This document shows, one piece after another, positions 1 through 61,266 of a stretch of 64,000 bases of DNA. This DNA is from a virus (taxonomy: Duplodnaviria; Heunggongvirae; Uroviricota; Caudoviricetes), in IMG/VR virus record IMGVR_UViG_3300013383_000019; one strand, 5' to 3'. The notes below the pieces were generated by a model. It had not been told where the DNA came from. It ran no database searches and saw only the letters and a list, made by a program, of their open reading frames with translations. Both the position numbers and the translations under genes were made by a program. Numbering within the stretch: the first letter of the stretch is position 1; every line of letters begins with the position of its first letter.

Positions 1-74
1 GTAAGCATCTGCTCAACCTTGCCCTCAGCCTTCTCCCAGAACTCGCGCAGTTCACGATCTTCAACCTTTTTCAT
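1..74 (-). CDS. Hypothetical protein, N-terminal fragment. Starts MKKVEDRELREFWEKAEGKVEQML and runs off the window edge.
   Basis: Reverse-complement ATG at 72-74 and an open frame to position 1; belongs to the minus-strand operon with 105..362. Confidence 0.35.
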   Translation of the reverse strand, partial: MKKVEDRELREFWEKAEGKVEQML

Positions 75-104
75 CCTCAAATACCTCCTCTGTTTTATTG
101 TCGC

Positions 105-362
105 TTACTTGTTCTTCTTACCAGCCAGTTCCTTATCGGCCTCGTCCAGCGCCTCGTTCAGCGCTTCCACTTCGGCCTCCAGATCTGCGATCTTATCGTG
201 CAGCGCCTGCTGCCCGCCAAGGTCGTCAATGATCTCCTGTGCGTAGTTGAACAGCAGATTTTTTAGCGTTTCCTTTGCGCCAGCGATACCGTTACCCCGC
301 GCCTTCGCAGACTCGTAAGCAATGCGCGCGCCTGTGAGATTCGTGTAATGTTCCTGTTTCAT
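105..362 (-). CDS. Hypothetical coiled-coil protein, 85 aa.
   Basis: Six-frame track ORF with a TAA stop; co-oriented with the downstream minus-strand genes. Confidence 0.45.
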   Translation of the reverse strand: MKQEHYTNLTGARIAYESAKARGNGIAGAKETLKNLLFNYAQEIIDDLGGQQALHDKIADLEAEVEALNEALDEADKELAGKKNK

Positions 363-504
363 GTGTTTTCCTCCAATAATTCATGATGTTAAATGAGTTC
401 CACCGGCGAGGTAGATAGGTTATACCACCCCGCAGGCATATCTTTCGAACCCTGTAACGTTACAAGGATTCTCAGCAAAAAAGAGATGTTGGAAACGAAA
501 AGAT

Positions 505-515
505 GTGCTATAATG
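505..515 (+). promoter_or_regulatory. Extended -10 promoter (tgtgcTATAAT) for cassette ORF 580..849.
   Basis: TGnTATAAT motif about 65 nt upstream of the RBS gagagg and the ATG at 580. Confidence 0.5.
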
Positions 516-579
516 AACTTGCCGGGTCCGCTCCATAGCATGCCTCACCGATACTTTGAAAAAGAGAGGTATTTTGTCT

Positions 580-849
580 ATGAAGAAGTAGAATTCCTGG
601 CATAAAGACTTATTGATCGTATTCCTTGGCATCACATTGTTTTGCATTGGGATACAGTACGGCACAGCAAACGACATAGCGCTGTTCTGGTCCATCGTAC
701 AAATGGTGGCCTCCGAAACTGTATTGGGCGCAATAGAATTTACCCTATCATGCGCCGGGTGCTCTACGGAAATTGCAAACTGCGCCACATAGGTGCTGCT
801 TGTAATAGAACTGCTCTGTACTCTATTTGCACCGCCACAAAGTCAATAA
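580..849 (+). CDS. Small two-TM membrane protein (cassette copy) with in-frame TAG at codon 4 and one further in-frame TAG. Either an amber-gated gene or a pseudogene.
   Basis: Reads MKK*NSWHKDLLIVFLGITLFCIGIQYG...CAT*VLLVIELL..; RBS gagagg; TAA stop; paralogs at 995 and 1412 share the ATG-AAG-TAG start. Confidence 0.4.
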
Positions 850-930
850 GCCAGAGAGGCAGCTTCCTGGAGGTTGCCTCCTTTCGTTTCCAACGTTACC
901 CACCCCTAACCCTACACAAAGAAGAAAGCA

Positions 931-941
931 TGTGATATACT
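931..941 (+). promoter_or_regulatory. Extended -10 promoter (tgtgaTATACT) for cassette ORF 995..1240.
   Basis: TG-n-TATACT motif; the same motif recurs upstream of the minus-strand cassette at 42384. Confidence 0.45.
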
Positions 942-994
942 GAATACGCTACTTGTAGCACGCCTCGCCAAATATAAACACGGAGGTGTTCGCT

Positions 995-1240
995 ATGAAG
1001 TAGAACATTGAAAAGATTATCGCTTGGGTTTGTCTTGTCGTCTCATGTATCGGTCTGCTGGTCCCCGCCATATCCTTTGTCGGGTTACTCCTGTCTGCGA
1101 TACTCATGATTACGTCAGACGCCACATAGCCAGCTATAGACCTCCTGCTGGCACTCATTGGCTGTCTCATTCCGGCTGTGAGTATATTTGCCCTTATGCT
1201 CACACTATAGGAATGGGCAGTCGCTGTGTCCGATGAGTAA
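995..1240 (+). CDS. Small two-TM membrane protein (cassette copy) with three in-frame TAG codons. Either an amber-gated gene or a pseudogene.
   Basis: Reads MK*NIEKIIAWVCLVVSCIGLLVPAISFVGLLLSAILMITSDAT*PAIDLLLALIGCLIPAVSIFALMLTL*EWAVAVSDE; RBS cggagg; TAA stop. Confidence 0.4.
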
Positions 1241-1341
1241 GCTGTAGTCTTTTCTGAGGCGTGGCACATCCAGTGTCATGCCTTCTTTGTGTCAACCAAT
1301 TATTGATCCCTCCCCTAACCCTACACAAAGCAACGAACGCA

Positions 1342-1350
1342 TGATATAAT
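1342..1350 (+). promoter_or_regulatory. Extended -10 promoter (aTGaTATAAT) for cassette copy 1412.
   Basis: TGnTATAAT motif 60 nt upstream of the RBS aggagg. Confidence 0.45.
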
Positions 1351-1411
1351 GGACTTGAAGGTTCCCACCTCGTAGCAAACCTCGGCAATATATCTCAGGA
1401 GGTAATTGCCT

Positions 1412-1640
1412 ATGTAGTATCTGTAGAATCTTCATAAAGAAAAGATCATTGCCTGTATTTGCCTTGTCCTGTCATGCGTCGGACTGTTTGTCTCCGCCAT
1501 ATCCATTGTCGGAGCGCTTCTGGCCTTAGCTATAATGCTCAGGCATATCTGCGGTTGATTTTCTGCTGGCATTCTTCGGCTGCATTATTCCTATTGTGGG
1601 GGTAATTGGACTATTCTTCACGCTCTAGGAATGGGCAATC
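1412..1640 (+). pseudogene. Third cassette copy, M*YL*NLHKEKIIACICLVLSCVGLFVSAISIVGALLALAIM.., with two early in-frame TAG codons and a frameshift indel relative to copy 995.
   Basis: Homology to 995..1240 breaks frame near 1560 (a 67-nt versus 75-nt aligned block). The conserved 'ctctaggaatgggca' block is kept. Confidence 0.35.
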
Positions 1641-1861
1641 ACGATGTCGAGCAACGAACCGGCATTATCGGTTGCCCCATTTCTACGGCAAGAGTAATCA
1701 AACATTGCTCATGCTTCGGGAATAGGTAATCGTAATACCCAGCAAAGAATAAACCGCCGGTTTCCTGGGAACGGCGCAATCCAGCGTCGCGTGTTGCTTT
1801 GTGTCAACCAAATTGTTATTCAATTTTCAAGGTTTCCCCCACTCCCATCGATTTCGATGGG

Positions 1862-2149
1862 TTATTCCCTTTTAACGCCGCCCTGAATGGCGGCTACAAA
1901 TTCCCCGTTGGATACCGGCAACTTCACCCCCAGCCGGATACAGTTGTAAGCCATCAGCCCCGCATAGCAGGCTGAAAGATCTTCGTCTCCATCCAGTCCT
2001 GCCCCAAATTCCGCCGCCACCTGTAAGACCCCGGCCTTGTGCGCTTCAGTGTCGGCCTTGAACAGCGCAGCGTTCGCGTCATAGAATTCCCGCCACTTCT
2101 GCGCCTGTTCGGCCGCATAAGCTTCATCCATCGGTTTGCATTTCGGCAT
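1862..2149 (-). CDS. Hypothetical protein, 95 aa.
   Basis: Track ORF with a TAA stop; minus-strand operon with the primase. Confidence 0.5.
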   Translation of the reverse strand: MPKCKPMDEAYAAEQAQKWREFYDANAALFKADTEAHKAGVLQVAAEFGAGLDGDEDLSACYAGLMAYNCIRLGVKLPVSNGEFVAAIQGGVKRE

Positions 2150-2166
2150 ACAAAACTCCTCACTTC

Positions 2167-2177
2167 TGTGCTATAAT
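2167..2177 (+). promoter_or_regulatory. Extended -10 promoter (tgtgcTATAAT).
   Basis: TGnTATAAT motif 30 nt upstream of the small ORF 2209. Confidence 0.4.
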
Positions 2178-2208
2178 TTCATTAACGCCGGGCGCAGGAA
2201 AGGATCAT

Positions 2209-2358
2209 TATGAAACCTCTGAATCGCGATGAAATCCAAATGCTGGCCCTCGAATACGCGAAATTGAAATGCTCGTCAACAGATACGGCTGTCAATCTTG
2301 CAAAATTTTATCTGGAGGCATACACTGAGATCTTGAACTATGTTCAAGGTAACACCTA
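2209..2358 (+). CDS. Small hypothetical protein, 49 aa (MKPLNRDEIQMLALEYAKLK...).
   Basis: RBS aggaaagga and the promoter above; overlaps the convergent ORF 2292..2504, so only one of the two may be real. Confidence 0.3.
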
Positions 2359-2504
2359 ACTTCAAGTTCGACTTTCCCAACCTCAGCTAGATATTTTGAA
2401 ACGTCACTAATGTCGTATGCGTCCGGCGATTGTGTAATTTTCCCATAAAGGAACTCCATCCACCCGAGCAGAATCTCTTCCATTCGTTCCAACTTATTCT
2501 CCAT
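2292..2504 (-). CDS. Hypothetical protein, 70 aa, translationally coupled to the primase-polymerase gene.
   Basis: RBS GGAGGA 9 nt upstream; 11-nt overlap with the end of 2494..3942. Confidence 0.4.
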   Translation of the reverse strand: MENKLERMEEILLGWMEFLYGKITQSPDAYDISDVSKYLAEVGKVELEVRCYLEHSSRSQCMPPDKILQD

Positions 2505-3942
2505 TAACCAGTTCCTCCAATTCTTTTTTCCCCATAATCTTTTTCAGCCGCGCCTGCAGCACCATGGCCTGCAGCACCATGCTATATACTTCCATAAAAT
2601 TCTCCTTCGTGGGCTCAGCCAGATGATCCGGCAGCGTGACCTGCTTCGCCTGAAGGCTCCACTCCTCTGGCAATGGCGGCGGTGTGGATCCAACCACATA
2701 ATATTTGTTCGGCTTTCGTTTCAGCTGGCCGTTCTCCATGTATGCGGCTCCATGAACCAGATCGATCTGCCGCTGGCGTACCATCTTCCACGCCGCGTCA
2801 AAGACTGTCTTCCACGTCGTTCCCAGTGCCGCCGCCGCCCAGTCGTAGCTCATCTGGCAGGTAACATGTCGTTTCAGTTTCCACCGCAGCAGGAACATGA
2901 ACTTCCGGCAGGTACGATTCGGCTGTGCCGCCCAATAAGCAATGTCGTCCGCGGTGAACACGGTCGGCTTACCTTTTCCGGGTGACGCCGCCACAAACTG
3001 CTCGCTGTAGACCCAGCGCATAATGTCGTCCGTCTCGCGCTCCAACGCCGCCGGCGACTGAAGTAGGAAATCCTCCGGCTGGTGCGCCGCCCAGGCCAGC
3101 AGTTCCGCGCGGTTGCGCTCCTGGCTTAGCCCGCGCCGCCGGTTATACATCCCAATGGCCAGCATCGTGTTGTGTCGGTGCCCCGGCTCTAACAAATCGG
3201 GATAGCCGTCGCCCTCCATCTGCGCCAGGTCTGCCCGCTTCATCTTCCGCGCGGGGACTGTTTCATTCTCCGGCATATCAAACGGCTTGCGCGGCGGCAG
3301 GATTTCCAACACCTTTTCGAAGTCGGCCACCGCCATCTGCTGAATCTGTAATATATACGCCGGATCCTCGATGGGCTGCAGCGTATCCCGATCCAGATAC
3401 CAGCACACCCGCCCGGTCTTGCAATGCACTGACAGCGGCAGCTTTATGGCCTGCCCGTTGGTCGGCCTGAACTCTATCTTGTGCGGGTCGAAGTTGCCGT
3501 CCACGCATACGCAGTCGTAGAACTTGCGCAGCTGCTCGGTGTACACAAGCCTGTCAAAGAAGATCTCGACATGGTACCCTTTGCCTCCGCTGGTGCTGAC
3601 GTAAATCAGTTCGCGGGGGACGCCATACCCGGTCAGGATCTCGATCAGCTTCTTTACCTCGAACGGATCGGGATAGTCGACGTCAAAGCAGATGAATTTG
3701 CTGCTGTACGCACCGGCGAAGACGCTGATTGCCAGCCTGCGATTCAGATGCTGGCACACCGCCCGGTTGGTCAGCTTCACGGGACCGGAGCTGGACTTGG
3801 GCATGTATATCCGATACCCCGCTTCCAGCTCGGGTGCCGCCTGCATTACCACATAGCGCTGGCGGTATGAGATGTACAGGTCGCAGAGGCGGTTCACGAC
3901 GTCGTAAAAGTTTTCCATGGCAGGTCCCCCTGATTTAATCAA
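2494..3942 (-). CDS. Primase-polymerase of the archaeo-eukaryotic primase (AEP) family; a replication initiation protein.
   Basis: 482 aa with the motifs CFDVDYPD (DxD), SGGKGYHVEIFF and TGYGVPREL, which are typical of Prim-Pol domains. Sits next to a repeat-rich putative origin. Confidence 0.75.
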   Translation of the reverse strand: MIKSGGPAMENFYDVVNRLCDLYISYRQRYVVMQAAPELEAGYRIYMPKSSSGPVKLTNRAVCQHLNRRLAISVFAGAYSSKFICFDVDYPDPFEVKKLIEILTGYGVPRELIYVSTSGGKGYHVEIFFDRLVYTEQLRKFYDCVCVDGNFDPHKIEFRPTNGQAIKLPLSVHCKTGRVCWYLDRDTLQPIEDPAYILQIQQMAVADFEKVLEILPPRKPFDMPENETVPARKMKRADLAQMEGDGYPDLLEPGHRHNTMLAIGMYNRRRGLSQERNRAELLAWAAHQPEDFLLQSPAALERETDDIMRWVYSEQFVAASPGKGKPTVFTADDIAYWAAQPNRTCRKFMFLLRWKLKRHVTCQMSYDWAAAALGTTWKTVFDAAWKMVRQRQIDLVHGAAYMENGQLKRKPNKYYVVGSTPPPLPEEWSLQAKQVTLPDHLAEPTKENFMEVYSMVLQAMVLQARLKKIMGKKELEELVNGE

Positions 3943-3949
3943 TCATTAA

Positions 3950-3968
3950 TAAAGGGAACATTTTAATG
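3950..3968 (-). promoter_or_regulatory. Conserved phage promoter motif AAAATGTTCCCTTTATTA; copy 1 of 5, upstream of the primase gene.
   Basis: Reverse complement of taataaagggaacatttt, about 30 nt upstream of the primase start on the minus strand. Confidence 0.55.
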
Positions 3969-4020
3969 GCCGTTTTTTCAGTTTGGCGAAAAAAATTTTT
4001 GCGGCAGCCGCAGAAGCATT

Positions 4021-4108
4021 GTTAAATATTTCACATTGAAATGAAAAACTTAAGTGAACGAATGGATATGGTCTAGGGAAGAGTAGGGATATATACTTCG
4101 TATATATA
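4021..4108 (+). repeat. Copy A of the 90 bp regulatory repeat module. It contains aaaacttaagtgaac and the palindrome atatatacttcgtatatat.
   Basis: About 85-90% identical to 4231..4317 and to the inverted copy 20645..20735. Confidence 0.8.
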
Positions 4109-4230
4109 AACTGTAATATTTGGGAGCTGCGGTCTTGGCGGTTTGTCTCCGACCTTTGGTCATGACCTTGACCTCAGCCTTCGGCCTTCGGCCTTGGCCA
4201 GACCATGAAATTAGTTATTACGATATACAT

Positions 4231-4317
4231 GTTAAATATTTCACATTGAAACAAAAAACTTAAGTGAACATGAGGATATCGGTCTTGGGAAGAGTAGGAT
4301 ATATACTTCGTATATAT
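4231..4317 (+). repeat. Copy B of the 90 bp regulatory repeat module, a direct tandem of copy A.
   Basis: Sequence identity to 4021..4108. Confidence 0.8.
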
Positions 4318-4481
4318 GGGCTCAGGTTCTGATCTTGAAATAAGGGGAGTTTCTGCACTTCTTCGCAGCTTCGCTCTGCTCAGAAGTACAGAAATGTCAT
4401 CGCTTCGGAACGGCCTGCGGCCTTCGCAGCTTCGGCCTTGGGACCTTGGGGCAGGGGCCTCATACCTTCTTGGAATTATCG

Positions 4482-4505
4482 TTAAATAATTCACATTAAA
4501 ACAAG
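4482..4505 (+). repeat. Partial copy C of the 90 bp module (gttaaataattcacattaaaacaa).
   Basis: Matches the 5' end of copies A and B. Confidence 0.5.
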
Positions 4506-5249
4506 GGGCGCGGCTTCGCAATTTCGTGGCTTCGCGGCTTCGCGGCTTCGGCCGTTGTCTTCGCTCCTGGGGGCTTCAGCTTCAAAGAAAAAATATCTCT
4601 GCAACGGGAAGGTTATGCCCGAAACCCACTCCCAATATATCCGACAACGGTTAAGGCCGAAATTTATTTCGATATTTATCGAAGCAAAATGGCGGGTTTT
4701 GGACGTTTTTCAGGCATTTTTCAGGGGGATTGGCGGAGCATTTGGGCGTCTTTGAAGGCCATTTTATGATATAGTTTAATAACGAATTCACCATGAAATG
4801 AGCGACCAGAGAGTGAACAGCCAGAGAAGCTGGCGCGAGCTGAGGTGAAATGGGTAAAGATTGTGCAAAGTTATGGCTGGGAATGCGAAAATATGTTGAT
4901 ATGTAACAGGCATAGAGGATTTGGAAGGCCGCCACACGCCACAAACGTAAACTATCATAACAGGTCATAATATGCCATTATGTCCTGTTATCTTTTTAAC
5001 AATACACATGCTTTTTCTAATAAATATAATGTGTATCGATATGCAATAAAGCGAATAAAAGCCATGGCAAGGCAATGCCTAGCGTCGAACTAGGTAAACG
5101 AGCGTTTACATCATGACAATAGTTATTTATTTAACAATTAAACACTCATTTAATCGTTCACAACAGTAAACATCTGTTTACCTTTTCGTTAAATATTTAA
5201 CGTAGTCCAGCCCAAAGCGCTTCACTTTGCTGAAGCGTCTGCCTTGGCT

Positions 5250-5435
5250 CTCCACCCCTCCACCCCTCCACCCCTCCACCCCTCGGAGGGAAGCGCTCTA
5301 CCCTGATAAAGCGCTTACCCCCGATGCCCTGCCTTCGCCGTCCTTCGCCGTCCTTCGCCGTCCTTCGCCTTCCTTCCCTTCCTTCCCTTCCTTCCTCCCT
5401 CCCTGCCTTCCCTTCCCTTCCCTTCCCTTCCCTAT
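5250..5435. repeat. Polypyrimidine tract on the plus strand, polypurine on the minus strand, with (CCACCCCT)4, (CCTTCGCCGT)3-4 and (CCTTC/CCCTT)n runs. The minus strand carries G4-capable GGGAAG / GGAGGGGT repeats.
   Basis: Direct reading of the sequence: ccacccctccacccctccacccctccaccc ... ccttcccttcccttcccttccc. Confidence 0.8.
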
Positions 5436-5552
5436 ATAGCACCATAATACCAGTTAGATATATCTAACGCCATCCTTTTTGCTATATAATAGGTAGAAAC
5501 CGCCGCCAAGCAAAAAGTTGCGAAAAAAAGCAAAAAAAATTTGCAGAAGGGG

Positions 5553-5581
5553 TTGACATACACTGCATAGTGTGCTATCAT
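5553..5581 (+). promoter_or_regulatory. Sigma70-type promoter: TTGACA, 17 bp spacer, extended TGcTATCAT.
   Basis: Consensus -35 box, exact 17 bp spacing and an extended -10; about 270 nt upstream of the ATG at 5852. Confidence 0.6.
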
Positions 5582-5589
5582 GCGTCATG

Positions 5590-5850
5590 TCAAGACACTG
5601 TGCAGTGTCTTCCGCACCTTGACAGTCCAATAGCCCCCGCCCCCGTCGCAGGGATTGCGCCCCATGGGTGCGCGCCGTCGGTGTATCCGGCAAGGGCGCG
5701 CGAAAAAGCCCACAAGCGCATGATATGCGATAGAGGACGGGCGCACAAGAGCATTTTTCCGCCGCTTGCAGGATTCCTTCCCTGCCAAAAAGCTTATTAA
5801 GGTTACCCAAAAATAATTTAACAGCGGCGCACGCCGCAGAAGGAGAAAAC
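5590..5850 (+). other. Long GC-rich 5' leader, about 260 nt, with a perfect hairpin (aagacactg-tg-cagtgtctt); possibly a structured regulatory RNA.
   Basis: Lies between the promoter and the RBS aaggaga; an inverted repeat at 5590-5612; C- and G-rich tracts. Confidence 0.3.
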
Positions 5851-5851
5851 C

Positions 5852-6649
5852 ATGGAAAAGACCACCACCATCATCAGCGCGGAAAATGCCAAAACCATCG
5901 CCCAGAAAATGACCGAACGGGCAAGTGCGCCTCAAATTAAGACCGTGCGCGTCAACGTCAATCCGTGCTGTTTCGCGTCCAACTTTGCGGAACAGCTGCG
6001 GGAACGCCAAACCGCGCTGGATAACGCCATTGCTCTGTACAAGTCTACCTATACGGAAAAAGGCGATATCATTAGCGCATGGGCGAACGTCGAAACGGCG
6101 CTAGAGGACTATAACGCCGAATACAAAGCCTTGCAGATTGACGCTTTGCGCAACGCCGGGACGGCTGTATATGTCACGTCTCCGATGTGCAAGGTTTGCA
6201 AGGTTCGCCGCGACAAAGACGGGCTTTATAAGTCTATGGACTTTGTTGACATGCCTGTTTTACCGTCTGAGTTCGACGACCGCGAAAAACCCATGTTTGC
6301 AAGTGCCCACTGGAAAGACGCCTTCCGCAACCTTGCGAACGCTTGCGGTTTTGTGTTCGGCGAAGAATGCGCCTTCGAAAACCGCGAAGGTGCTTCTAGC
6401 CGCGCAAAAATCAAAGACGCGCTTGCGGATTGCATTAAAGCTGTTTTCGGCTCTGAGTGCAAATACAGTCCGCGTTCTAGCGACGTTAGCGCGTTACTGT
6501 ACAGTTTCGCAAGTCGTGACACGCGCAACGTTAACAGCTTTAAGCGTATGGCCGTGAGCATGTTCCGTTGGTGCATTATCGACACTATCGGCGCGGCCAT
6601 GAACGGCGCTAGCTACAAATTTACCGCGACCAAAAAAGACGCCGAATGA
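5852..6649 (+). CDS. Hypothetical protein, 265 aa.
   Basis: Track ORF with RBS aggaga, a strong promoter and a downstream terminator. Confidence 0.6.
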   Translation: MEKTTTIISAENAKTIAQKMTERASAPQIKTVRVNVNPCCFASNFAEQLRERQTALDNAIALYKSTYTEKGDIISAWANVETALEDYNAEYKALQIDALRNAGTAVYVTSPMCKVCKVRRDKDGLYKSMDFVDMPVLPSEFDDREKPMFASAHWKDAFRNLANACGFVFGEECAFENREGASSRAKIKDALADCIKAVFGSECKYSPRSSDVSALLYSFASRDTRNVNSFKRMAVSMFRWCIIDTIGAAMNGASYKFTATKKDAE

Positions 6650-6775
6650 CCCTATACCTATACCCTGCCGTCCTGCGGGCGGCGGAAAAATGCTCTTGTG
6701 TGTGTGCTATGATTTTCGATAAAGGCCACCCCTTTGTGGGGCTGGTCTATTTCTCGTGCCTTAATTTATTTCAAT

Positions 6776-6815
6776 AAAGCGTTTGCTCCGGCCTTTTCAA
6801 ACGCTTTATTTTTGC
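6776..6815 (+). terminator. Rho-independent terminator.
   Basis: Stem aaagcgtttg...caaacgcttt followed by atttttg. Confidence 0.6.
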
Positions 6816-7433
6816 CAAACAAGGCAATCATAGCAATGGGCGTTATAAATTTATGGCAAGGCAAGCCTATAACCATAGCTGTATAGCATAGCATGGCATG
6901 GCTTGCGTGCTCTACCTACCATGGCGGCGGTATGCCTATAAGACGCAGCGGCGTTGTATAAAGGCAGGAATCATCATATCCGACGATAGTGGCGGCGGGG
7001 CTGAAAAAGCCATACCCGGCGTATCCTAGCAGGGACAAAACACGCGTTCGAAAGAGCGCCTGTAGCGCGTCGTACCGTTGCGAAACAGGAACGGCTATAA
7101 GGGGATACGATTCTATTTTTGCGCAGAACTTTGCGGTTTGCAAGGGGCGGTTTATGCGAGACCGTCTCTTGCGACCGCAGCAAAGCGAAAGCGGAATGAT
7201 TGTTTTATTGAATTTACAGGAATGTTATAACTATGGATAGAGGAAATTCTACACCATACGAAGAAAATTCGGCTTCGCCCGCTTTGCCTGCGCAGCCTTC
7301 TGCCTTGCATTTGGCTCCGCCTTCGGCCTTGCCGGCCTTGCCTTTTGGCAACAATTCTGCTTCGCCGGCCTTGCCTTCCGGCGGCAGCTATGTTACAATG
7401 GCGGCAGAATGTGAAGGTAAAGGCGGGAAGAAT

Positions 7434-7664
7434 ATGGCGATCGATATGAAGCGGAAAAAGCAATATGATAATGAATGGCAGCGGCAAAATTGTATTCGAA
7501 TAAATTTTACAATTCGAAATAATACCGATACGGCAAAAGGTGTTATGATGTTGAAAGAACAGAAAATACCTGTTACGCCATACATTGAAAAAGCCCTTCG
7601 TAAACAACTCATCGCCGACGGCTATTTACGGCAATCCATCCAATCCAACGAAACAGAAGAATAA
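7434..7664 (+). CDS. Small ribbon-helix-helix-like DNA-binding protein, 76 aa.
   Basis: MAIDMKRKKQYDNEWQRQNCIRINFTIRNN.. resembles CopG/RHH plasmid and phage regulators. The track ORF 7233..7664 has an N-terminal extension that is a translation of Ala/Pro-coding repeat DNA and is probably not real. Confidence 0.45.
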   Translation: MAIDMKRKKQYDNEWQRQNCIRINFTIRNNTDTAKGVMMLKEQKIPVTPYIEKALRKQLIADGYLRQSIQSNETEE

Positions 7665-7678
7665 CCTGCAAAATTGAG

Positions 7679-7716
7679 AACAGCCCTATGCGCAAGCCGC
7701 GGGGGCTGTTTTTCTA
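7679..7716 (+). terminator. Rho-independent terminator.
   Basis: Stem acagccc...gggctgt followed by ttttc. Confidence 0.5.
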
Positions 7717-7964
7717 TGCCCAAAATTAAGCAAAGGAGGTAATCCTCACCCGGATCCTCATGCCTTATGGTGTGAATTATGCAGTCGTTGGCGAATGGCG
7801 GAATATCATGACGGTGTTTATGTCTGCAAACCGCAGCGGGTTTCATGCCGGTGTGCGCGGCGTTTGAGCCCGGCTTATGAACCGGCGCAGCTGCTTGCGG
7901 CTCAACAGCTCTACGGCTCTGCCTATATGGCAAATAAAGGAGGTGTGCAATTCGAAAATCGTAG

Positions 7965-8112
7965 ATAACGATGCGGGAAATTTGTAAATTCCTGCATCGC
8001 CCATCGCCACATCGCGGAAATTTACAAATTTGTCGGATCGTCTGATTGCGGAAATTCTGGAATAGCCTGATTGCGGAAATTTATATTTAAGACATCGCGG
8101 AAATTTCAAAGG
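7965..8112 (+). promoter_or_regulatory. Array of five GATTGCGGAAAT(TT) / CATCGCGGAAATTT repeats with AAATTTGTAAATT palindromic cores; a putative operator and promoter region for the early operon.
   Basis: Five copies within 150 bp, immediately upstream of the RBS aaaggagga and the ATG at 8123. Confidence 0.55.
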
Positions 8113-8122
8113 AGGAATCCCC

Positions 8123-8269
8123 ATGGACTACATCACCAGCGCAGCATACCTGTACGACGGCGGCTGGCGCAAAGAGGACAAGGAGCAGCTGATTGCGGAA
8201 TATGGCCTTTCAGAAGAGGACGCGCAGAAAATCTGCGCAGAGCTTGCAAGATTTGAAGAGGAGGAATAG
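8123..8269 (+). CDS. Small early protein, 48 aa; the first gene of the early operon.
   Basis: RBS aaaggagga; ends in TAG immediately before the next gene. Confidence 0.5.
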   Translation: MDYITSAAYLYDGGWRKEDKEQLIAEYGLSEEDAQKICAELARFEEEE

Positions 8270-8271
8270 CA

Positions 8272-8505
8272 ATGCGGGACGCTATGCGAAACATCTGGGA
8301 ATCTGCGCAAATTGGGCGCAAAGTCGGAGTGGTGGCGCTGGTGATCGTGCTGATGACCGGCGCATTTTTTGTGGGCGGAATCTGGGCGGTCACGCATATG
8401 CACGTCTACACCCGGCAGGGCGGAGAAGTCCGCGCGGAGGTATTCGGCAATGTGTTCAGCCATAACGCCGGGCAAATTCGCAGTTGGAGGGGGCGGATGG
8501 AATGA
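8272..8505 (+). CDS. Small membrane protein, 77 aa.
   Basis: Track ORF with RBS ggaggaa; hydrophobic core VGVVALVIVLMTGAFFVGGIWAV. Confidence 0.55.
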   Translation: MRDAMRNIWESAQIGRKVGVVALVIVLMTGAFFVGGIWAVTHMHVYTRQGGEVRAEVFGNVFSHNAGQIRSWRGRME

Positions 8506-8699
8506 TTGCGAAACTTGCCGCGCTGTATCTGGCGCTGAGCATGGCCGCGTCGGCGGCCTATAATACCTGCCCGCAGCATGCGTGGGACATCGCGGAACAT
8601 CGCAGCGGGCTGTTAATCGTGTCGGTGGACGAGGACGGAATCTGGCTGTTGAACCCGCTGAGCAATGCGGGAGACGATTGGTTAGGAGGAATAAAATGA
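8502..8699 (+). CDS. Hypothetical protein, 65 aa.
   Basis: ATGA overlap with the previous gene; RBS ggaggg. Confidence 0.5.
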   Translation: MIAKLAALYLALSMAASAAYNTCPQHAWDIAEHRSGLLIVSVDEDGIWLLNPLSNAGDDWLGGIK

Positions 8700-8917
8700 G
8701 CAATCTCAAAACGGCAGACCTTTTCGGGCTGGATAATCGCGAAAATTCCAATAATCGCGGAACCTACGACGTTACCATTGCCGGCGGAGAGCGCAAGCGC
8801 AGCGTGTTCGCGCCGACCCGCAAGGACGCAATTCATCAGGCATGGCGGGAGCGCTGGCTTGACCCGGAACTGGGCAACGATTGGGACGAAATCGAAATTA
8901 AACGGAGGAGGAAATAA
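8696..8917 (+). CDS. Hypothetical protein, 73 aa.
   Basis: ATGA overlap; RBS ggagga. Confidence 0.5.
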   Translation: MSNLKTADLFGLDNRENSNNRGTYDVTIAGGERKRSVFAPTRKDAIHQAWRERWLDPELGNDWDEIEIKRRRK

Positions 8918-8919
8918 CC

Positions 8920-9519
8920 ATGTCCATTTACGGAAATTCCATGTTGGCCACACTGCGCCGGGATTGCGACGGCGAATTCATCGCGCTGAGCACCTGCGCA
9001 AAATTGGACGGGCGGCACGGCCGCTTTTTAATCAACGCAGACCGGCTGGGCAAATGGCTGGCTTCAAATACCGGCGACGAATTCTACGATTCTGATTGCG
9101 GAAACTGGCTGCGCATCACTCCGGCGGGAACCCTGCAGCTGTGCTGGGTGAGCAGTGTCGGCGGCAACAAGGGTATGTGTTTAACGCAGACCCTTCGCGT
9201 AGACCGCGCGGCGCTGAAACAGCTCATCACCGGCGAACAGGAATCCTTGAAGCTGTTCGTCCCGGAGAATCGGAGCGGCAGGGCGCGGATTGAACTGGCG
9301 CAGAGCGCCCATGTTCCTCGGAACCCACACATGCGGCGCGCGTTCAGCAAAGCCTTGGCGCGGGCGTTTGGCTGGGAGGGCGCGACCATTACGCTGTACC
9401 CGGACGGCGCGCAGGATTATTACTTCGTGGAGACGTGTGAGAACGGCAAGCGTGGAATCTGCGGCGGGCTGATCTATTCGGATTATCGCGGACATAGCCA
9501 GTATAACGTGCATACCTGA
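8920..9519 (+). CDS. Hypothetical protein, 199 aa.
   Basis: Track ORF with RBS ggaggagg. Confidence 0.6.
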   Translation: MSIYGNSMLATLRRDCDGEFIALSTCAKLDGRHGRFLINADRLGKWLASNTGDEFYDSDCGNWLRITPAGTLQLCWVSSVGGNKGMCLTQTLRVDRAALKQLITGEQESLKLFVPENRSGRARIELAQSAHVPRNPHMRRAFSKALARAFGWEGATITLYPDGAQDYYFVETCENGKRGICGGLIYSDYRGHSQYNVHT

Positions 9520-9537
9520 CAAAGGGAGGATATCGCA

Positions 9538-9666
9538 ATGATGATTTTTACAACTCGCAAGGAAGCGGAAGAATTCGCCTATGGCGATGAAGTTGTCGTC
9601 AAGGTGGACGGCGGCTGGGCAGTCATGAAGGCGCAGGATTATAACGTGTGGAAGGAGCAGAAATAA
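9538..9666 (+). CDS. Small protein, 42 aa.
   Basis: RBS aaagggagga; coupled to the next gene. Confidence 0.4.
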   Translation: MMIFTTRKEAEEFAYGDEVVVKVDGGWAVMKAQDYNVWKEQK

Positions 9667-9668
9667 CC

Positions 9669-10043
9669 ATGATGTACAATACGATTCGAGAAGCTGCGAC
9701 CGCGTGGGTGAATTCATTTAACGCGGTGCCCACTACGGTAGTTGAAAAGCTGATGCAGCTTGACCTTGACGATGTGCGGGAAATCACGCCCGGCCGCAGG
9801 GACGAGGATGCAGACTATCTTCCCATGTGGGGCACGATGTGGTCGTTCGGCGACTCCGCGGACGATTACTGGCTTGAGGAGGAAGACGGGCTGGAGCTTA
9901 TGGCCGAGTGCGGCTTCCGCATCTACGAGCAGGAGGATTTCGGCTACCTCTTCGGTATCGACGGAGCCGGTTACAGCTTCATGGACAACCATTGGATTCC
10001 GCTGTATAAGGCGCGCGGACTGCAGTGGCATAGGGAGGAATGA
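9669..10043 (+). CDS. Hypothetical acidic protein, 124 aa.
   Basis: RBS ggaaggag; in-frame portion of the track ORF 9648..10043. Confidence 0.55.
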   Translation: MMYNTIREAATAWVNSFNAVPTTVVEKLMQLDLDDVREITPGRRDEDADYLPMWGTMWSFGDSADDYWLEEEDGLELMAECGFRIYEQEDFGYLFGIDGAGYSFMDNHWIPLYKARGLQWHREE

Positions 10044-10046
10044 ACC

Positions 10047-10748
10047 ATGCAGCGCTACAAAACCGAATACGATGCTCAGGCCGGTGAATTCATGCGCAAA
10101 TGGGGCGTGAAGATTCGCCGGCATTTTGTTGGGAAAATGCGGTACTTCCCGTATGACCGCGAACCGCGCAACGTGTGGGAAATTACGCTGGAGCGCGGCG
10201 ACCACGGGTATTCCTTCGCGTTCGGAGACAGCTTTGCCAACACGCAGAAATCCCCGCGCCATGAGCCGTCCGATTACAACATTCTGGCGTGCGCATCGGT
10301 GGATTCCCGCTTTGATTGCGCGGATGTGCGGGACATGATCGATAAATATGGATGTGGCGAACCCGGAGATCAGCGCGAATTTGACATACTCAACCGCATT
10401 TTGCTTACATCTAACGAACACAGTCGAAAACTGCGAGAAATGTTCGCGGATTGTCTCGACGAATTGCGGAGATTCGGTGATATGGCGGACGTGAACCCGA
10501 AACTTCGTCCGGAACTTGAACCGCTGACGGAGAAAATTCAGCGCCATGAGCTCCGGCTCCAGCAGTACGGCGAGCAGTTGCGGGAAAAGGGCGGATACAA
10601 GGATTATGAAACCCAGTTTGCGTGGGACGTGCTGCACAAAGTGATGATGACGTTCGAAATCCACAGATGGTATGACGAATATGGCTGCAACGACCAGGAT
10701 ATCACGGCGCTGGCCATTGCGGCGTGCAAAAAGGCGGGGGTGCTGTGA
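10047..10748 (+). CDS. Hypothetical protein, 233 aa.
   Basis: Track ORF with RBS gggagga. Confidence 0.6.
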   Translation: MQRYKTEYDAQAGEFMRKWGVKIRRHFVGKMRYFPYDREPRNVWEITLERGDHGYSFAFGDSFANTQKSPRHEPSDYNILACASVDSRFDCADVRDMIDKYGCGEPGDQREFDILNRILLTSNEHSRKLREMFADCLDELRRFGDMADVNPKLRPELEPLTEKIQRHELRLQQYGEQLREKGGYKDYETQFAWDVLHKVMMTFEIHRWYDEYGCNDQDITALAIAACKKAGVL

Positions 10749-13955: not shown

Positions 13956-14290
13956 TGAAGCTCATCACAAAAGAAATCGAACGCCGGCTGGAAAAATATC
14001 CGTTTGGCTCGCAGGACGGCGAAGGCAAAGGCGCACAGGTGCTGGTCAAGTTCTTCGGCGGCGGCACCTGCACATGGCTGGTCACGGAAGCGGAACGTAC
14101 CGACGACGGCGGCTGGGATTTCTACGGCCTTGCCAACATCGGCTACGGCTGGGAGTGGGGCTGGTTCAGCCTGCAGGAGCTGGAAGAAGTGAAGTTCCCG
14201 CCGTTCGGTCTGGGCGTTGAGCGGGATCTATATCTGCCCGCCGGCGCAGTCGTGAAAGACCTGATCGGGGAGGATGCCGTTTTTTGCTGA
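13955..14290 (+). CDS. Conserved phage/ICE-type hypothetical protein, 111 aa (KYPFGSQDGEGKGAQVLVKFFGGGTCTWLVTE...GWEWGWF).
   Basis: RBS ggaggg; the motif pattern recalls conserved mobile-element proteins, but the family name is uncertain. Confidence 0.5.
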   Translation: MKLITKEIERRLEKYPFGSQDGEGKGAQVLVKFFGGGTCTWLVTEAERTDDGGWDFYGLANIGYGWEWGWFSLQELEEVKFPPFGLGVERDLYLPAGAVVKDLIGEDAVFC

Positions 14291-14404
14291 GAATCCTTAA
14301 TGCGGCACAAGCGCGGAGAAGATGTCGCACCGGATAGGGGTTAGGATACACCGCGAACTAGAGCATGAGAAACCCTGTGTCTGCAGGGGCTTGGAGGACA
14401 AAGA

Positions 14405-14755
14405 ATGGGCTATCTGACTTCGTATTCTATGGAGGCGCTGCATGTCGCGGCGCAGGATGTTGAAAAGATAGAAGCGGCTATCGAGGAGCTGAATATGCCG
14501 CTGGGCGACTTCTATTACGACCCGCAGGATCAGGTCTTTAACGCGGAGCCGAATGGAGAATGGCGCTGGTACGGCCATGAGGACGATATGGCTGAGCTCA
14601 GCGAGCGTTTCCCCGGCGCGCTCTTCAAGCTGCACGGCGAGGGAGAGAACCGCGACGATGTGTGGGATAAATACTTCGCCGGCGGCGAGATGATCGAGAA
14701 GGTTTACGCGGTGATGTTTATGCCGGAGCCGAAGAAGGTGAAATGGGAGGCGTAG
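14405..14755 (+). CDS. Hypothetical acidic protein, 116 aa; ends in TAG.
   Basis: Track ORF with RBS ggaggacaaaga. Confidence 0.55.
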   Translation: MGYLTSYSMEALHVAAQDVEKIEAAIEELNMPLGDFYYDPQDQVFNAEPNGEWRWYGHEDDMAELSERFPGALFKLHGEGENRDDVWDKYFAGGEMIEKVYAVMFMPEPKKVKWEA

Positions 14756-14837
14756 GTCGGTACACCGACATACGAAGCAAGGAGGGCAGAATAAATTAAA
14801 CTATCATTCATTCAGCAAGAATAGCGCAGTTAATGTA

Positions 14838-17767: not shown

Positions 17768-18526
17768 ATGGAAAACCAGACGCAAATTTTTAACAACGAA
17801 CAGTTTGGAAACGTCAGGATTATCGAGGAAGCCGGGAAATTCTTGTTCTGCGGCAGCGATGTAGCGAAGGCGCTGGGATATGCCCGTCCTAATGACGCGA
17901 TCGCCGCGCATTGCCGGTATACGGCAAAACGCAGTATACCTCACCCGCAGGCCGCGGATAAACAAATCGACATGATTTTCATTCCCGAAGGCGACGTTTA
18001 CCGCCTCATCACCCACAGTAAACTCCCGGATGCAGAAAAATTCGAACGCTGGGTGTTCGACGAAATACTTCCCGCCATCCGCAAAACGGGCGGCTACATC
18101 GCCGGCGAAGAAAACATGACAGACGATGAGCTCGTCGCCAAGGCGCTCATTATCACAACCGAGAAGCTCAAGCAGCGCGAAGCAAGGATTGCCGCGCTCA
18201 GCGCGCAGATCGAGGAAGATCGCCCCTATACTCATTTCGGCAAGTCCATCTCCGCCAGCGACGCCACCATCCTGCTCGGCGATTTCGCCAAGGTCGCCGC
18301 CAACAGCGGCATTCCCATCGGCCGCAACCGGCTCTTCAAGTGGCTGCGCGATAACAAATACCTCATGCCGGATAATAAACCGTATCAGCGGTATGTCGAT
18401 CAGGGCGTGTTCGCTGTCAAGGAAAGCAAGGTCTTCACCGGCTTTGAGGAAACCATCCGGACAACCACGCTCGTCACCGGCAAAGGGCAGAAATATCTCA
18501 TGGAACGATTGGAGGCCGGCGCATAA
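17768..18526 (+). CDS. Phage antirepressor with a Bro-N domain and a KilA-C domain.
   Basis: N-terminal FNNEQFGNVRII..FCGSDVAKALGY (Bro-N); C-terminal KilAC-like region; RBS gaggagg. Confidence 0.7.
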   Translation: MENQTQIFNNEQFGNVRIIEEAGKFLFCGSDVAKALGYARPNDAIAAHCRYTAKRSIPHPQAADKQIDMIFIPEGDVYRLITHSKLPDAEKFERWVFDEILPAIRKTGGYIAGEENMTDDELVAKALIITTEKLKQREARIAALSAQIEEDRPYTHFGKSISASDATILLGDFAKVAANSGIPIGRNRLFKWLRDNKYLMPDNKPYQRYVDQGVFAVKESKVFTGFEETIRTTTLVTGKGQKYLMERLEAGA

Positions 18527-18734
18527 GCCGTGGACAGTTCATGTTCACCGTTGATGGAAGAGGTTCGCCGCGGTCGTGCAGTTCTGCAAAGACAACAAGC
18601 GCTATCGCGATTGCTGCCAGTAACAAGACGCCGAGAGGTGTTGCTCCGGCGGTCGGGAACAAAAATACCAAGCCGCTGTAATTGCTTACAGCTTGTAACA
18701 CGCAGGTTACGCCACGCAAGAGATAAATCATCAA
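18498..18734 (-). CDS. Small membrane protein, 78 aa; paralog of 36590..36871.
   Basis: Shared block NYSGLVFLFPTAGATPLGVLLLAAIAIALVVF; sits antisense within a plus-strand gene array. Confidence 0.45.
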   Translation of the reverse strand: MMIYLLRGVTCVLQAVSNYSGLVFLFPTAGATPLGVLLLAAIAIALVVFAELHDRGEPLPSTVNMNCPRLMRRPPIVP

Positions 18735-18813
18735 TTTGGTTAAAAACTTACGGCTCGGCGTTTTCTTCCATCAACCGTGGACATGAACATTATAACATGC
18801 AAGGAGCCTTGAA

Positions 18814-19532: not shown

Positions 19533-19610
19533 ACAACCACCTCGCCCTTGATTATATCATATAATCCGGCGTCATAAAATCATGAGCGGAACAAAACAAA
19601 AACGGGACGG

Positions 19611-19892
19611 TTACCCGCCCCATTCCTTCCTTGTCGGCGCGATTGCGGCTAACCATCCCAGCCAGGAAATAACGATTAGTCCAATCGCCAGCCACTCTGC
19701 CGGGATAAACCCGAGCTACGCCAACCCTACCCCGATGTAACCCATCAGGCTGCGCTGAATCATCGCCCCGCGTGCCGCGAGGGCGACCCCAGCTGAATTC
19801 AGCGCAAAGTTTACAGGGAAAGGCGCAAGCGCTCCGGTCTATCCAAGTATGAGTGAAACCGACGCAGAATGTTTATCGAGCAACTTTATCAT
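19611..19892 (-). CDS. Small membrane protein, 93 aa, with two in-frame TAG codons (codons 18 and 59) and its own promoter. Either amber-gated or a pseudogene.
   Basis: Reads MIKLLDKHSASVSLILG*TGALAPFPVNFALNSAGVALAARGAMIQRSLMGYIGVGLA*LGFIPAEWLAIGLIVISWLGWLAAIAPTRKEWGG; RBS gggaggag; extended -10 TGgTATAAT about 50 nt upstream. Confidence 0.4.
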
Positions 19893-20040
19893 TTTCTTTT
19901 CTCCTCCCAAAACAAAATGGCGAAAGGAAAAGAAACGCAAGCGCTCTTATTTGCATTATACCATACGTAGAACAGGTGTGCAACGTTCCGCTCATGATCT
20001 TATGGCGCTGGACGCGCCAAATAAAACAGGAGGTATCCAT

Positions 20041-23516: not shown

Positions 23517-24527
23517 TTGGCGATTACCAAAATTCAGTTAAACAATATCACGGTCTTCAGTTCTCTTGATTTGCCGCTTTCCAAAGGGATAAACGTTTTT
23601 ATCGGCGAAAACGGCGTCGGGAAAACGCATATCATGAAGTTGCTGTACAGCGCCTGCAGAGCGGTGAGGCATGATGTTTCTTTCGCGCAGAAAGTCGTAA
23701 AGGTCTTTATGCCCGACGGTGCCTGCATCCATCGCCTGATCAGCCGCAAGAAAAACATCAAGACAGGTTCTGTCAGCATTTTTTCAGACGCCGCGAAGCT
23801 CTCAATGAATATTACTTCCCAAACCAAAAAATGGGATGCGGATGTGCGCGGCGAAGAGAGGTGGGAGCGTCAGTTCCCGGAACTGAACAGCACCTTTATT
23901 CCCGCAAAGGAAATTCTCTCCAACGGCTGGCATTTTGAAGCCGCTGTCCATGTCGGCAACGTAGAGTTTGATGAAACCTATGTCGACGTGGTAAGCGCGG
24001 CTAAGATTGACATCAATACCGGCCGCGATCCGGAGAGTAGAAAGAAGTATCTCGATATTCTTTATCGGGCAACCAAGGGCAAGGTTTTGCTTGAAGAGGA
24101 TCGGTTTTATCTCCGTCCGGGCAATCAGGCAAAAATCGAGTTCAGTCTGGTTGCGGAAGGGATTCGAAAGCTTGCTCTCCTGTGGCAGCTGATAAAGAAC
24201 GGAACGCTGGAAAACGGAGCTGTTCTTTTCTGGGATGAGCCCGAAGCGAATCTGAATCCAAAGTATATTCCCGTCGTTGCAGAAACGCTGCTTGCTCTGC
24301 AGCGCGATGGAGTACAGGTATTCGTTTCTACGCACGACTATTTCCTGACGAATTATCTCGAAATCAAACGCAAGGCAGAGGATGAAATCCTTTACCATTC
24401 GCTTTATTGGGAAGATTCGGAAGTGGTTTGCGAAACGCAGAAGTCTCTCGCCGCGCTCCAGCATAATGCAATTTCTGAAACCTTCCGGCAAATGTACGAA
24501 GATGAAATCAGGAAAGCGATGGGTTGA
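23517..24527 (+). CDS. ABC/AAA_21-type ATPase, 336 aa; a candidate defence-system ATPase.
   Basis: Walker A GENGVGKT, Walker B LFWDEPEANL and an H-loop STHDYF. Confidence 0.65.
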   Translation: MAITKIQLNNITVFSSLDLPLSKGINVFIGENGVGKTHIMKLLYSACRAVRHDVSFAQKVVKVFMPDGACIHRLISRKKNIKTGSVSIFSDAAKLSMNITSQTKKWDADVRGEERWERQFPELNSTFIPAKEILSNGWHFEAAVHVGNVEFDETYVDVVSAAKIDINTGRDPESRKKYLDILYRATKGKVLLEEDRFYLRPGNQAKIEFSLVAEGIRKLALLWQLIKNGTLENGAVLFWDEPEANLNPKYIPVVAETLLALQRDGVQVFVSTHDYFLTNYLEIKRKAEDEILYHSLYWEDSEVVCETQKSLAALQHNAISETFRQMYEDEIRKAMG

Positions 24528-24533
24528 GCGCCT

Positions 24534-25052: not shown

Positions 25053-25067
25053 CAGAAGGAGCGCCCC

Positions 25068-25337: not shown

Positions 25338-25409
25338 TTATAATAAAGTTGACGCTCCGCAGAAAATGTATTATAATTTTTAAGGAAACCAAGCGGAAGG
25401 AGGATCTGC

Positions 25410-61139: not shown

Positions 61140-61266
61140 TTGAAGCCACCTCCTGTGGCTATTATACACAAACACGCGGCAGACTGCAATGTTTTCTTTT
61201 GTGAACGGGGAGATGGAGCGGTACAGCAATATTAAGGGGCGATCGCGTTAACCCCGCCGGTTTCTA

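Follow-up and report, generated by a model that had tools for sequence, protein, structure and literature searches.

Recoding of a stop codon in phages has been proposed to keep lysis proteins or toxic proteins from being produced prematurely, and maybe to separate lysogeny from lysis (Borges et al., bioRxiv 10.1101/2021.08.26.457843). In one clade a transmembrane (TM) protein of the lysis cassette was among the most strongly recoded genes, and only TAG-to-Gln and TGA-to-Trp changes were seen by these authors. Code 15 of crAss-like phages was validated by proteomics (PMC9523058), and amber suppressor tRNAs lying in phage tRNA arrays were proposed as triggers of a code switch in the theta-ribozyme paper (PMC10879173), where 69% of the suppressor tRNAs were predicted to be of the Gln isotype, 19% Trp, 10% Ile and 1% Tyr, Leu being unreported. 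We describe here a stretch of viral DNA of 64,000 nucleotides (IMG/VR record IMGVR_UViG_3300013383_000019, hereafter the window) which its genes identify as the early and replication region of a ~117-kb temperate gut phage. It contains six small cassettes, numbered c1–c6, in which a promoter and a leader precede a short hydrophobic open reading frame (ORF) carrying in-frame TAG codons. On the sequence evidence, the cassettes are probably autonomous genes of a phage that uses TAG sparsely as a sense codon and encodes its own leucine-type suppressor tRNA, so that their full translation would be amber-gated.

UAG is read as Leu in the mitochondrial codes 16 and 22 and by supP, a leucine-inserting amber suppressor of Escherichia coli. 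Because leucyl-tRNA synthetase (LeuRS) does not read the anticodon, a tRNA-Leu turns into a suppressor by a single change there. Translationally silenced mRNAs of small toxins or holins are known in the type I toxins hok and tisB and in the lambda S holin, the last with its sdi stem-loop and dual starts. Phage morons are normally expressed in the lysogen.

The phage resembles the recoded phages in having its own suppressor tRNA, in confining TAG to a subset of genes, in the depletion of TAG as a terminator, and in the lack of in-frame TAG in the integrase and in the replication genes seen. It differs from the phages of Borges et al. in that TAG is apparently Leu instead of Gln and is very sparse, in that the structural and lysis modules seen were spared except for one signal-peptide protein by the endolysin, and in that TAG is found in autonomous cassettes of the early region, clustered in the first codons. 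As in the phages of PMC10879173, the amber suppressor lies within a tRNA array, but it is of the Leu type and no Rfam ribozyme was matched around it. Like codes 16 and 22 and supP, the system would read UAG with a derivative of tRNA-Leu; unlike these organellar or laboratory cases, the tRNA is virus-borne and serves few genes, the code of the host itself being presumably the standard one. The small hydrophobic proteins and the predicted 5' structures occluding the Shine–Dalgarno (SD) sequence or the start recall hok, tisB and lambda S, from which the cassettes differ by the extra lock of in-frame stops, by the lack of any identified antisense RNA or dual start, and by the absence of homology. 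As in morons, a single ORF with its own promoter and terminator is placed between or against operons and its presence varies among relatives; unlike morons, the cassettes would need a suppressor for full translation.

The gating idea itself is the published hypothesis for stop-codon-recoded phages (bioRxiv 10.1101/2021.08.26.457843), and the published support for recoding holding back harmful late proteins is statistical. What is new here is the Leu-type suppressor, the concentration of a sparse recoding in toxin-like cassettes and the clustering of TAG early in the ORFs; no description of a natural TAG-to-Leu code in a bacterial virus was found in the literature searched. The recoded genes are few, small and self-contained, with a HicA toxin gene among them, which makes the gating hypothesis directly testable. 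The Leu reading, if true, widens the known range of phage codes, and the clade would be mis-annotated by gene callers set to the standard code as well as by table 15, in which TAG is Gln.

Autonomous cassettes with in-frame TAG codons

A first-pass annotation of the window had described six promoter–leader–ORF units, each with its own extended −10 motif. All six were recovered, with the motifs reading as quoted, strong ribosome binding sites and small hydrophobic ORFs (Table 1). The motif TGNTATAMT was present 13 times in the window as compared to 1.8 expected, a number reached by none of 100 shuffled sequences. The promoters are of host type and the orientation of the cassettes is independent of the phage operons; on the opposite strand of the cassettes only weak promoter-like sites were seen. 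The cassettes thus appear autonomous from promoter to terminator, transcription itself being predicted. Six was an undercount, since the HicA toxin ORF, the ORF at 61431–61267, probably c8 and, outside the window, c7 are built alike (c7–c9 designate further small TM ORFs). The proposed division into two paralog families holds for the pairs c2/c3 (49% identity) and c5/c6 (45%), with c1 being a distant relative (26% identity with c2) and c4 a singleton. In the same way, the leader motifs thought to be conserved are common within c2/c3 and within c5/c6, and no wider. The ORFs had been described as two-TM; they are hydrophobic, with stretches of 20–40 aa, hence two to four membrane spans are possible.

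In-frame TAG amounted to 14 per 523 cassette codons, compared to two per 13,357 codons in the genes of at least 150 aa, one of these two being in a doubtful ORF. Counted among Leu-type codons, TAG represented 2 of ~1,160 in the long genes, whereas in the cassettes 14 TAGs stood beside 84 standard Leu codons. The ORFs of c1–c6 were all free of internal TAA and TGA. Each cassette has two to three TAGs, often within the first 2–10 codons. An early TAG (codons 2–5) is common to c1, c2 and c3 in spite of the low identity of c1 and c2, and the TAG reported at codon 33 of both copies near 42 kb was found in c5 and c6.

Judged from their substitutions, the cassettes are protein-coding, because the divergence of the paralogs spares codon position 2, also downstream of the TAGs. 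Between c2 and c3, the N-half showed 10/3/16 differences at codon positions 1/2/3; for the C-half, with the stretch downstream of TAG included, the numbers were 15/3/16. Because of this coding-type pattern, a reading of the cassettes as non-coding RNAs was rejected.

Contigs and loci compared with the window are designated by L-numbers (L003, L005–L008, L033, L034, L039, L040, L074, L075). The first-pass annotation had proposed to look for the TAG positions in related phages, where random TAA, TGA or frameshifts would have spoken against the cassettes, and the opposite was seen for c5 and c6. In L039, whose flanking PARP protein is 89% identical, c5 and c6 both occur, changed at some amino acids but with all four TAGs kept. 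In L040 (flanking PARP 74% identical) only the c6 orthologue exists; its N-terminus, promoter and leader differ from those of c6 and both TAGs are at the same positions. The TAGs of c6 are therefore kept in the two relatives while the neighbouring codons change. Strain-level contigs were 100% identical over c5 and c6, hence uninformative. Beyond the window, among the clustered tRNAs, is the ORF c7, with TAG as its codons 4 and 10 and a very basic C-tail; a PG_binding_1 protein is encoded 0.9 kb away on the opposite strand. The L034 orthologue of c7 carries three TAGs, at codons 2, 4 and 8, the last aligning with the second TAG of c7, and in both ORFs a TAG directly precedes the motif LLCLA, the primases of the two phages being 38% identical.

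Searches of Pfam, of PHROGs and of 1.8 billion representative proteins gave no homologue for the TM ORFs. For c2, no relatives were found in IMG/VR or by a word-indexed protein search, and an exhaustive HMMER search with c6 returned its own 32-aa stub and two matches to long proteins (552 and 986 aa) judged to be spurious. No convincing TAG-bearing TM ORF adjoined the PARP-gene relatives at 32 GTDB loci. Full-length families of such membrane proteins are missing from the searched protein collections because TAG truncates them.

In the minimum-energy folds of the leaders, a CCUC tract pairs with the SD sequence in all six units, and the start codon is also paired in c2, c5 and c6. The z scores ranged from −2.4 to −4.1 in c2, c4, c5 and c6 (Table 1), and the folds of c1 and c3 were weak. 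None of 200 shuffled sequences folded as well as the c2 and c6 leaders, and one compensatory change, C-G to U-A, separates the leaders of c5 and c6. On this thin evidence, the predicted folds suggest a second translational lock. The leader pattern of c5 and c6 was absent from IMG/VR.

Table 1. Position of the cassette elements and of the other TAG-bearing genes in the window
Feature	Position	Strand	Description
c1 extended −10	504–514	+	tgtgcTATAAT; TGCTATAAT at 506–514
c1 leader	521–579	+	CCUC upstream of SD (GAGAGG); fold z = −0.3, weak
c1 ORF	580–849	+	89 codons; TAG codons 4 (589–591), 71 (790–792); stop TAA
c1 terminator-like hairpin and T-run	856–880	+	
c2 extended −10	931–941	+	tgtgaTATACT; TGATATACT at 933–941; −35-like TACACA
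c2 leader	948–994	+	predicted hairpin pairing CCUC with GGAGG and 5' end with AUGAAGUAG; z = −4.05
c2 ORF	995–1240	+	81 codons; TAG codons 3 (1001–1003), 45 (1127–1129), 72 (1208–1210); stop TAA
c2 terminator-like hairpin	1256–1284	+	
c3 extended −10	1341–1350	+	atgaTATAAT; TGATATAAT at 1342–1350
c3 N-half	1412–1558	+	48 codons; TAG codons 2 (1415–1417), 5 (1424–1426); frame-0 stop TGA
c3 C-half	1557–1697	+	+1 frame; TAG 1626–1628; stop TAA
c3 terminator-like hairpin	1772–1789	+	
c4 extended −10	19963–19955	−	tggTATAAT; TGGTATAAT
c4 leader	19893–19948	−	CUUUUCCU pairs with SD region; z = −2.6
c4 ORF	19611–19892	−	93 codons; TAG codons 18 (19841–19839), 59 (19718–19716); stop TAA
c4 terminator	19598–19627	−	
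c5 −10 region	42810–42801	−	atgaTATAAA; TGATATAAA at 42801–42809; alternative TTGACG-18-TATGAT 42835–42806
c5 leader	42757–42794	−	predicted hairpin sequesters SD and AUG; z = −2.4
c5 ORF	42511–42756	−	81 codons; TAG codons 33 (42660–42658), 78 (42525–42523); stop TGA
c5 terminator	3' of c5	−	GC hairpin and T-run visible in sequence
c6 extended −10	42445–42436	−	atgaTATACT; TGATATACT at 42436–42444
c6 leader	42385–42429	−	predicted hairpin sequesters SD and AUG; z = −4.1
c6 ORF	42127–42384	−	85 codons; TAG codons 33 (42288–42286), 59 (42210–42208); stop TGA
c6 terminator	42093–42117	−	
c8, possible extra cassette	36590–36895	−	small TM ORF; TAG codon 7 (36877–36875); promoter 37098–37090; ~190-nt leader
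HicA toxin ORF, extra cassette	60928–61140	−	70 codons; TAG 61092–61090, 60978–60976; promoter TGTATAAT 61168–61161
Extra cassette ORF	61267–61431	−	54 codons; TAG 61365–61363; promoter 61536–61528
PAPS-reductase-like gene	37870–38730	+	one in-frame TAG 38215–38217
RemA-like gene	49488–49865	+	one in-frame TAG 49587–49589, kept in L039 and L040

The suppressor tRNA and the reading of TAG

The first-pass annotation had claimed that translation of the cassettes depends on amber suppression. A phage tRNA with a CUA anticodon, the conserved TAGs and a HicA domain in a cassette with two TAGs make this claim well founded; the phage-borne suppressor, the probable Leu reading, the presence of TAG in ordinary genes and the prior publication of the gating hypothesis had been missed. 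No tRNA was found in the window itself. The CTA-anticodon tRNA was found at 15041–15117 of L005–L008, four contigs 97–99% identical to positions 1–10,362 of the window, in a cluster of six tRNAs by the terminase module, 4.7 kb to the left of window base 1. Its sequence is identical in all four, scored 39.9 bits against the Rfam tRNA family (gathering score 29), and shows a normal GG D-loop, a TTCGAAC T-loop, a 5-nt variable loop, a G1-C72 pair and the discriminator A73.

Two relatives of ~100–111 kb, L033 and L034, with primases 36–38% identical to that of the phage, possess 21–22 tRNAs each, with one CTA tRNA per set. These two suppressors, 85 and 87 nt in length, have the long variable arms of class II tRNAs. 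The three suppressors have in common the tRNA-Leu D-arm GTGGYGYAAYTGGCAGNCGC and A73. The D-arm of the phage suppressor matches that of a tRNA-Leu of L033 at 18 of 20 positions, and when 48 tRNAs were ranked by the similarity of their D-arm to it, the first six places were taken by tRNA-Leu genes and the suppressors of L033 and L034. Short variable arms are also seen in the relatives, in several tRNAs of 74–79 nt with Leu anticodons, and the tRNA-Gln genes of the clade (starting with TG and ending with GCCA) are unlike the suppressor. In work by Asahara et al. and Larkin et al., LeuRS of E. coli reportedly required neither the anticodon nor the long arm for leucylation.

The terminase of L034 is closely similar to that of the phage over its whole length. 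Its five in-frame TAGs (5 in 566 codons, ~1%) face L, L, L, L and Y here, the Leu codons being CTT, TTG, TTG and CTG, with identical motifs around them such as LAMGV[TAG/L]YPGSL. Of the four TAG sites in a protein of 239 aa, two have Leu opposite them in both other phages. Among the cassettes, TAG59 of c6 aligns with a TTA (Leu) of c5 and, by eye, TAG45 of c2 faces a TTG of c1. Altogether Leu was found at ~9 of the 17 sites aligned with TAG (P ~1e-5 with a background of 10%), and Gln at a single site, in one of the sequences. Leu is therefore the most likely reading of TAG. Code 15 (TAG = Gln) was rejected on account of the Leu alignments, the G1-C72 pair, A73 and the tRNA-Leu D-arm. Neither a release factor nor an aminoacyl-tRNA synthetase was found among the 20 larger window proteins scanned.

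The tRNA arrays of the relatives extend over positions 14300–20207 in L033 and 13298–17109 in L034. In L033, skipping-rope, drum and RAGATH-36 RNAs are located between tRNAs, the skipping-rope RNA directly after the suppressor tRNA.

Proposed amber gating and competing readings

We propose the following mechanism. When the suppressor is insufficient, release factor 1 would stop translation after 1–3 residues in c1–c3 and c7, and after 17–32 residues in c4–c6, so that the full-length, presumably membrane-active or toxic protein would be absent even with the mRNA present. Accumulation of the suppressor tRNA would then allow the full-length product to be made. Because each ORF has two to three TAGs, the output would respond steeply to the suppressor level, the yield being approximately the suppression efficiency raised to the number of TAGs, as in a threshold-like switch. 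On this view the TAGs would be maintained for regulation and the proteins would be harmful, with expression of the tRNA setting the timing. The HicA cassette argues for harmful products, as its toxin ORF has no adjacent antitoxin gene: HicA_toxin (PF07927) was matched over positions 1–58 of 58 of the profile with E = 1.3e-15, HicA structures of the PDB matched too, and no HicB match adjoined it among the upstream ORFs checked at this locus. As for the holin-like function suggested by the first-pass annotation, the ORFs of 81–93 aa are hydrophobic, a strongly basic tail is present only in c7, and c1 and c2 are net acidic; c1–c6 are in the early region and not beside the endolysin, and had no holin match in PHROGs or Pfam. 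In a wider version that we consider unlikely, the cassettes would constitute a translational tripwire or timer under a TAG-to-Leu code, their host-type-promoter mRNAs being untranslatable and becoming lethal only once an amber suppressor appears, either the phage's own at induction or that of an invading recoded phage; the number of early TAGs would set the steep threshold.

Several observations weigh against amber gating through a Leu-type suppressor. The suppressor is located outside the window and known only from near-identical contigs. Its variable arm is short, its 4-bp anticodon stem has a C31-C39 mismatch, and its acceptor begins with G1-C72 followed by a G2-U71 pair; given the short arm, the stem and G2-U71, charging with Leu is no more than probable. 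Stems of 4 bp have been linked to stop-codon reading (PMC13092985, 2026, NAR). At the other aligned sites TAG faces Y, Q/T, R/T, A, V (PAPS reductase, in L040) and I (RemA-like), and the two TAG sites of HicA face V/V/L/F/E and D/D/H in the HicA proteins of the PDB. Since no TAG occurs in the terminase, in the tail genes seen or in the best holin candidate (93 aa), gating is not a general late-gene strategy of the phage. The third cassette is frameshifted, a net deletion of 11 nt as compared to c2 having removed the middle TAG and moved the C-half to the +1 frame in the five strains compared, out of five. c3 could be a pseudogene, a gene for a 48-aa product or a case of programmed frameshifting. 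In strain L007 the C-half of c3 has ~16 substitutions, with both the +1 frame and the TAG preserved.

The richness in TAG could, above all, be plain inheritance from more heavily recoded relatives. There would be no gating, TAG being a rare Leu codon and the cassettes morons received from such relatives, a possibility that we consider somewhat unlikely. It would fit the frequency of TAG in the L034 terminase, which is of the same order as in the cassettes, and the GC content of the cassette regions (0.46–0.48), lower than the window average. The cassettes are accessory, because c5 and c6 are missing in the relatives at ≤68% (L074 and L075 have neither), and the paralog of c8, c9 (~18735–18520 on the minus strand, region 18520–18797, with an extended −10 upstream), is without TAG. 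Simple ancestry is less easily reconciled with the early TAG of c1, c2 and c3, with the TAG kept before LLCLA in c7 and its orthologue at such a distance between phages, and with the persistence of both c6 TAGs amid changing flanking codons. It also leaves aside the contrast in TAG use between long genes and cassettes, and the fact that the sole recognisable toxin, HicA, is TAG-bearing and has no adjacent antitoxin.

It is quite unlikely that the cassettes act against other phages, the lysogen transcribing them without being able to translate them, and the amber suppressor of an incoming phage turning on the membrane proteins and HicA and aborting the infection. The autonomous host-type promoters, the orientation independent of the phage operons and the unpaired HicA could be understood in this manner, suppressor-carrying phages are common in the gut, and further modules of defence type are encoded in the window, namely an AAA_21 ATPase and AbiEii accompanied by a DUF6088 protein as its partner. 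The prophage has its own suppressor, however, so that self-activation at induction is the simpler reading, and an incoming suppressor of the Gln type would put Gln into the hydrophobic segments.

Another possibility is that TAG is a true stop and that the short products are functional, namely one-helix peptides of 32 residues in the case of c5 and c6 and, for c4, a peptide of 17 residues, everything past the TAG being left untranslated. Type I toxins are typically peptides of ~30 residues with one TM helix, and the 32-aa products of c5 and c6 do appear in public standard-code gene calls. We nevertheless consider this very unlikely: c1, c2, c3 and c7 would give peptides of 1–3 residues, the coding-type sparing of position 2 continues past the TAGs, the frame stays open as far as a TAA or TGA in the units and in their orthologues, and in HicA, RemA and PAPS reductase the Pfam match extends across the TAGs. 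For the ORFs to be decaying pseudogenes gathering stop codons, as the frameshift of c3 and the lack of homologues might suggest, is extremely improbable, given that the interruptions are all TAG and never TAA or TGA, that TAG positions are conserved in the orthologues of c6 and c7, and that promoters, SD sites and terminators are intact with coding-type substitutions. Finally, pyrrolysine has a negligible probability: it is favoured only by the "Pyl" label that ARAGORN applies to any CTA anticodon, whereas G18G19 and TTCGAAC are not known from tRNA-Pyl, whose anticodon stem is 6 bp and whose variable loop is 3 nt long, the phage tRNA has a normal D-loop with G18G19, TTCGAAC, a 5-nt variable loop and a 4-bp stem, TAG aligns with Leu, and no Pyl genes were seen in a partial scan of the proteins.

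Other TAG-bearing genes and the phage

Amber gating of autonomous cassettes, which we favour, would concern a small part of the phage genes. The recoding is sparse and involves about 12–15 genes, among which the PAPS_reduct, RemA-like and HicA_toxin genes have Pfam matches continuous across TAG. In a coding-score gene map where TAG was called as sense, TAG appeared to terminate one of 82 ORFs (14405–14758); the serine recombinase outside the window is TAG-terminated. TAG was also absent from the endolysin and from the structural genes beside the terminase, in a survey of structural and lysis genes that covered all but ~30 kb of the phage genome. To the right of the window, at 13976–14377 (minus strand) of L003, a secreted or membrane protein adjoining the endolysin has its signal peptide (MNKVFCILLT*VFMMTVCVG, the asterisk marking TAG) interrupted by a TAG within the hydrophobic core, and public gene calls start downstream of this TAG. 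At the 3' side of HicA, a hairpin and a T-run are visible in the sequence, followed by a converging ClpP-like gene. The ORFs c8 and c9 have in common the motif LFPTA.ATP..LLL.AIAIALVVF. A small hydrophobic ORF with one TAG was observed at 38810–38968 (minus strand), antisense within the DNA ligase gene, with a TGTATAAT motif upstream at 39048; it may be due to chance.

The host of the phage is probably a member of the Clostridia, because the relatives of the PARP gene are mostly in genomes or metagenome-assembled genomes labelled Ruminococcus, Oscillospiraceae and other Clostridia. Exact-protein look-ups placed the window on metagenome contigs of 88–119 kb from many samples, and ERZ27300206 k119_58561 showed 100% identity across the last 11,279 bases of the window. 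No INPHARED phage gave a megablast match to positions 1–25,000, and no Rfam family was matched in the window. The replication genes recognised in the window, as large ORFs with Pfam matches, encode an archaeo-eukaryotic primase (AEP; 2494–3942, minus strand), a Toprim/DnaB-type primase-helicase and a DNA ligase. Other matches were a PARP/WGR protein, an intein-containing DnaE polymerase, an anaerobic ribonucleotide reductase, SHMT, PhoH, ClpP, Bro/ANT antirepressors, the AbiEii module and a tyrosine integrase. A serine recombinase, an endolysin-like gene and tail genes lie to the right of the window; to its left are the tRNA cluster, the terminase and a 528-aa gene which we take to be the portal.

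Over ~3.5 kb (3942–5852 and 6649–8272) neither strand had an ORF of positive coding score, and the same segments are nearly empty in public gene calls, with one call of 196 aa in L007 and one of 79 aa in L006. The part from 5200 to 5480 is repetitive and CT/GA-rich. These ORF-poor stretches could be an origin, iterons or RNA. An island of lower GC content and defence type (23517–26925) contains the AAA_21 ATPase, the DUF6088 protein and the AbiEii nucleotidyltransferase toxin, and the tyrosine integrase is located at 28132–29088. Upstream of the PARP/WGR protein (region 40397–42051) is a gene of 151 aa; among related phages, its homologues gave faint-to-weak Macro-domain matches. The DnaE polymerase (region 43438–48354) is split by an intein, absent from the relatives L040 and L074.

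The primase homologues P0031, P0003 and P0032 belong to small integrated elements or prophage remnants in which neither cassettes nor a suppressor tRNA were found. The AEP-primase module and its train of small genes (relatives of window ~2.5–14 kb) were also observed in L009, L010 and L073, which are short integrated elements or remnants, without suppressor tRNA, inserted in bacterial chromosomes and equipped with their own integrases.

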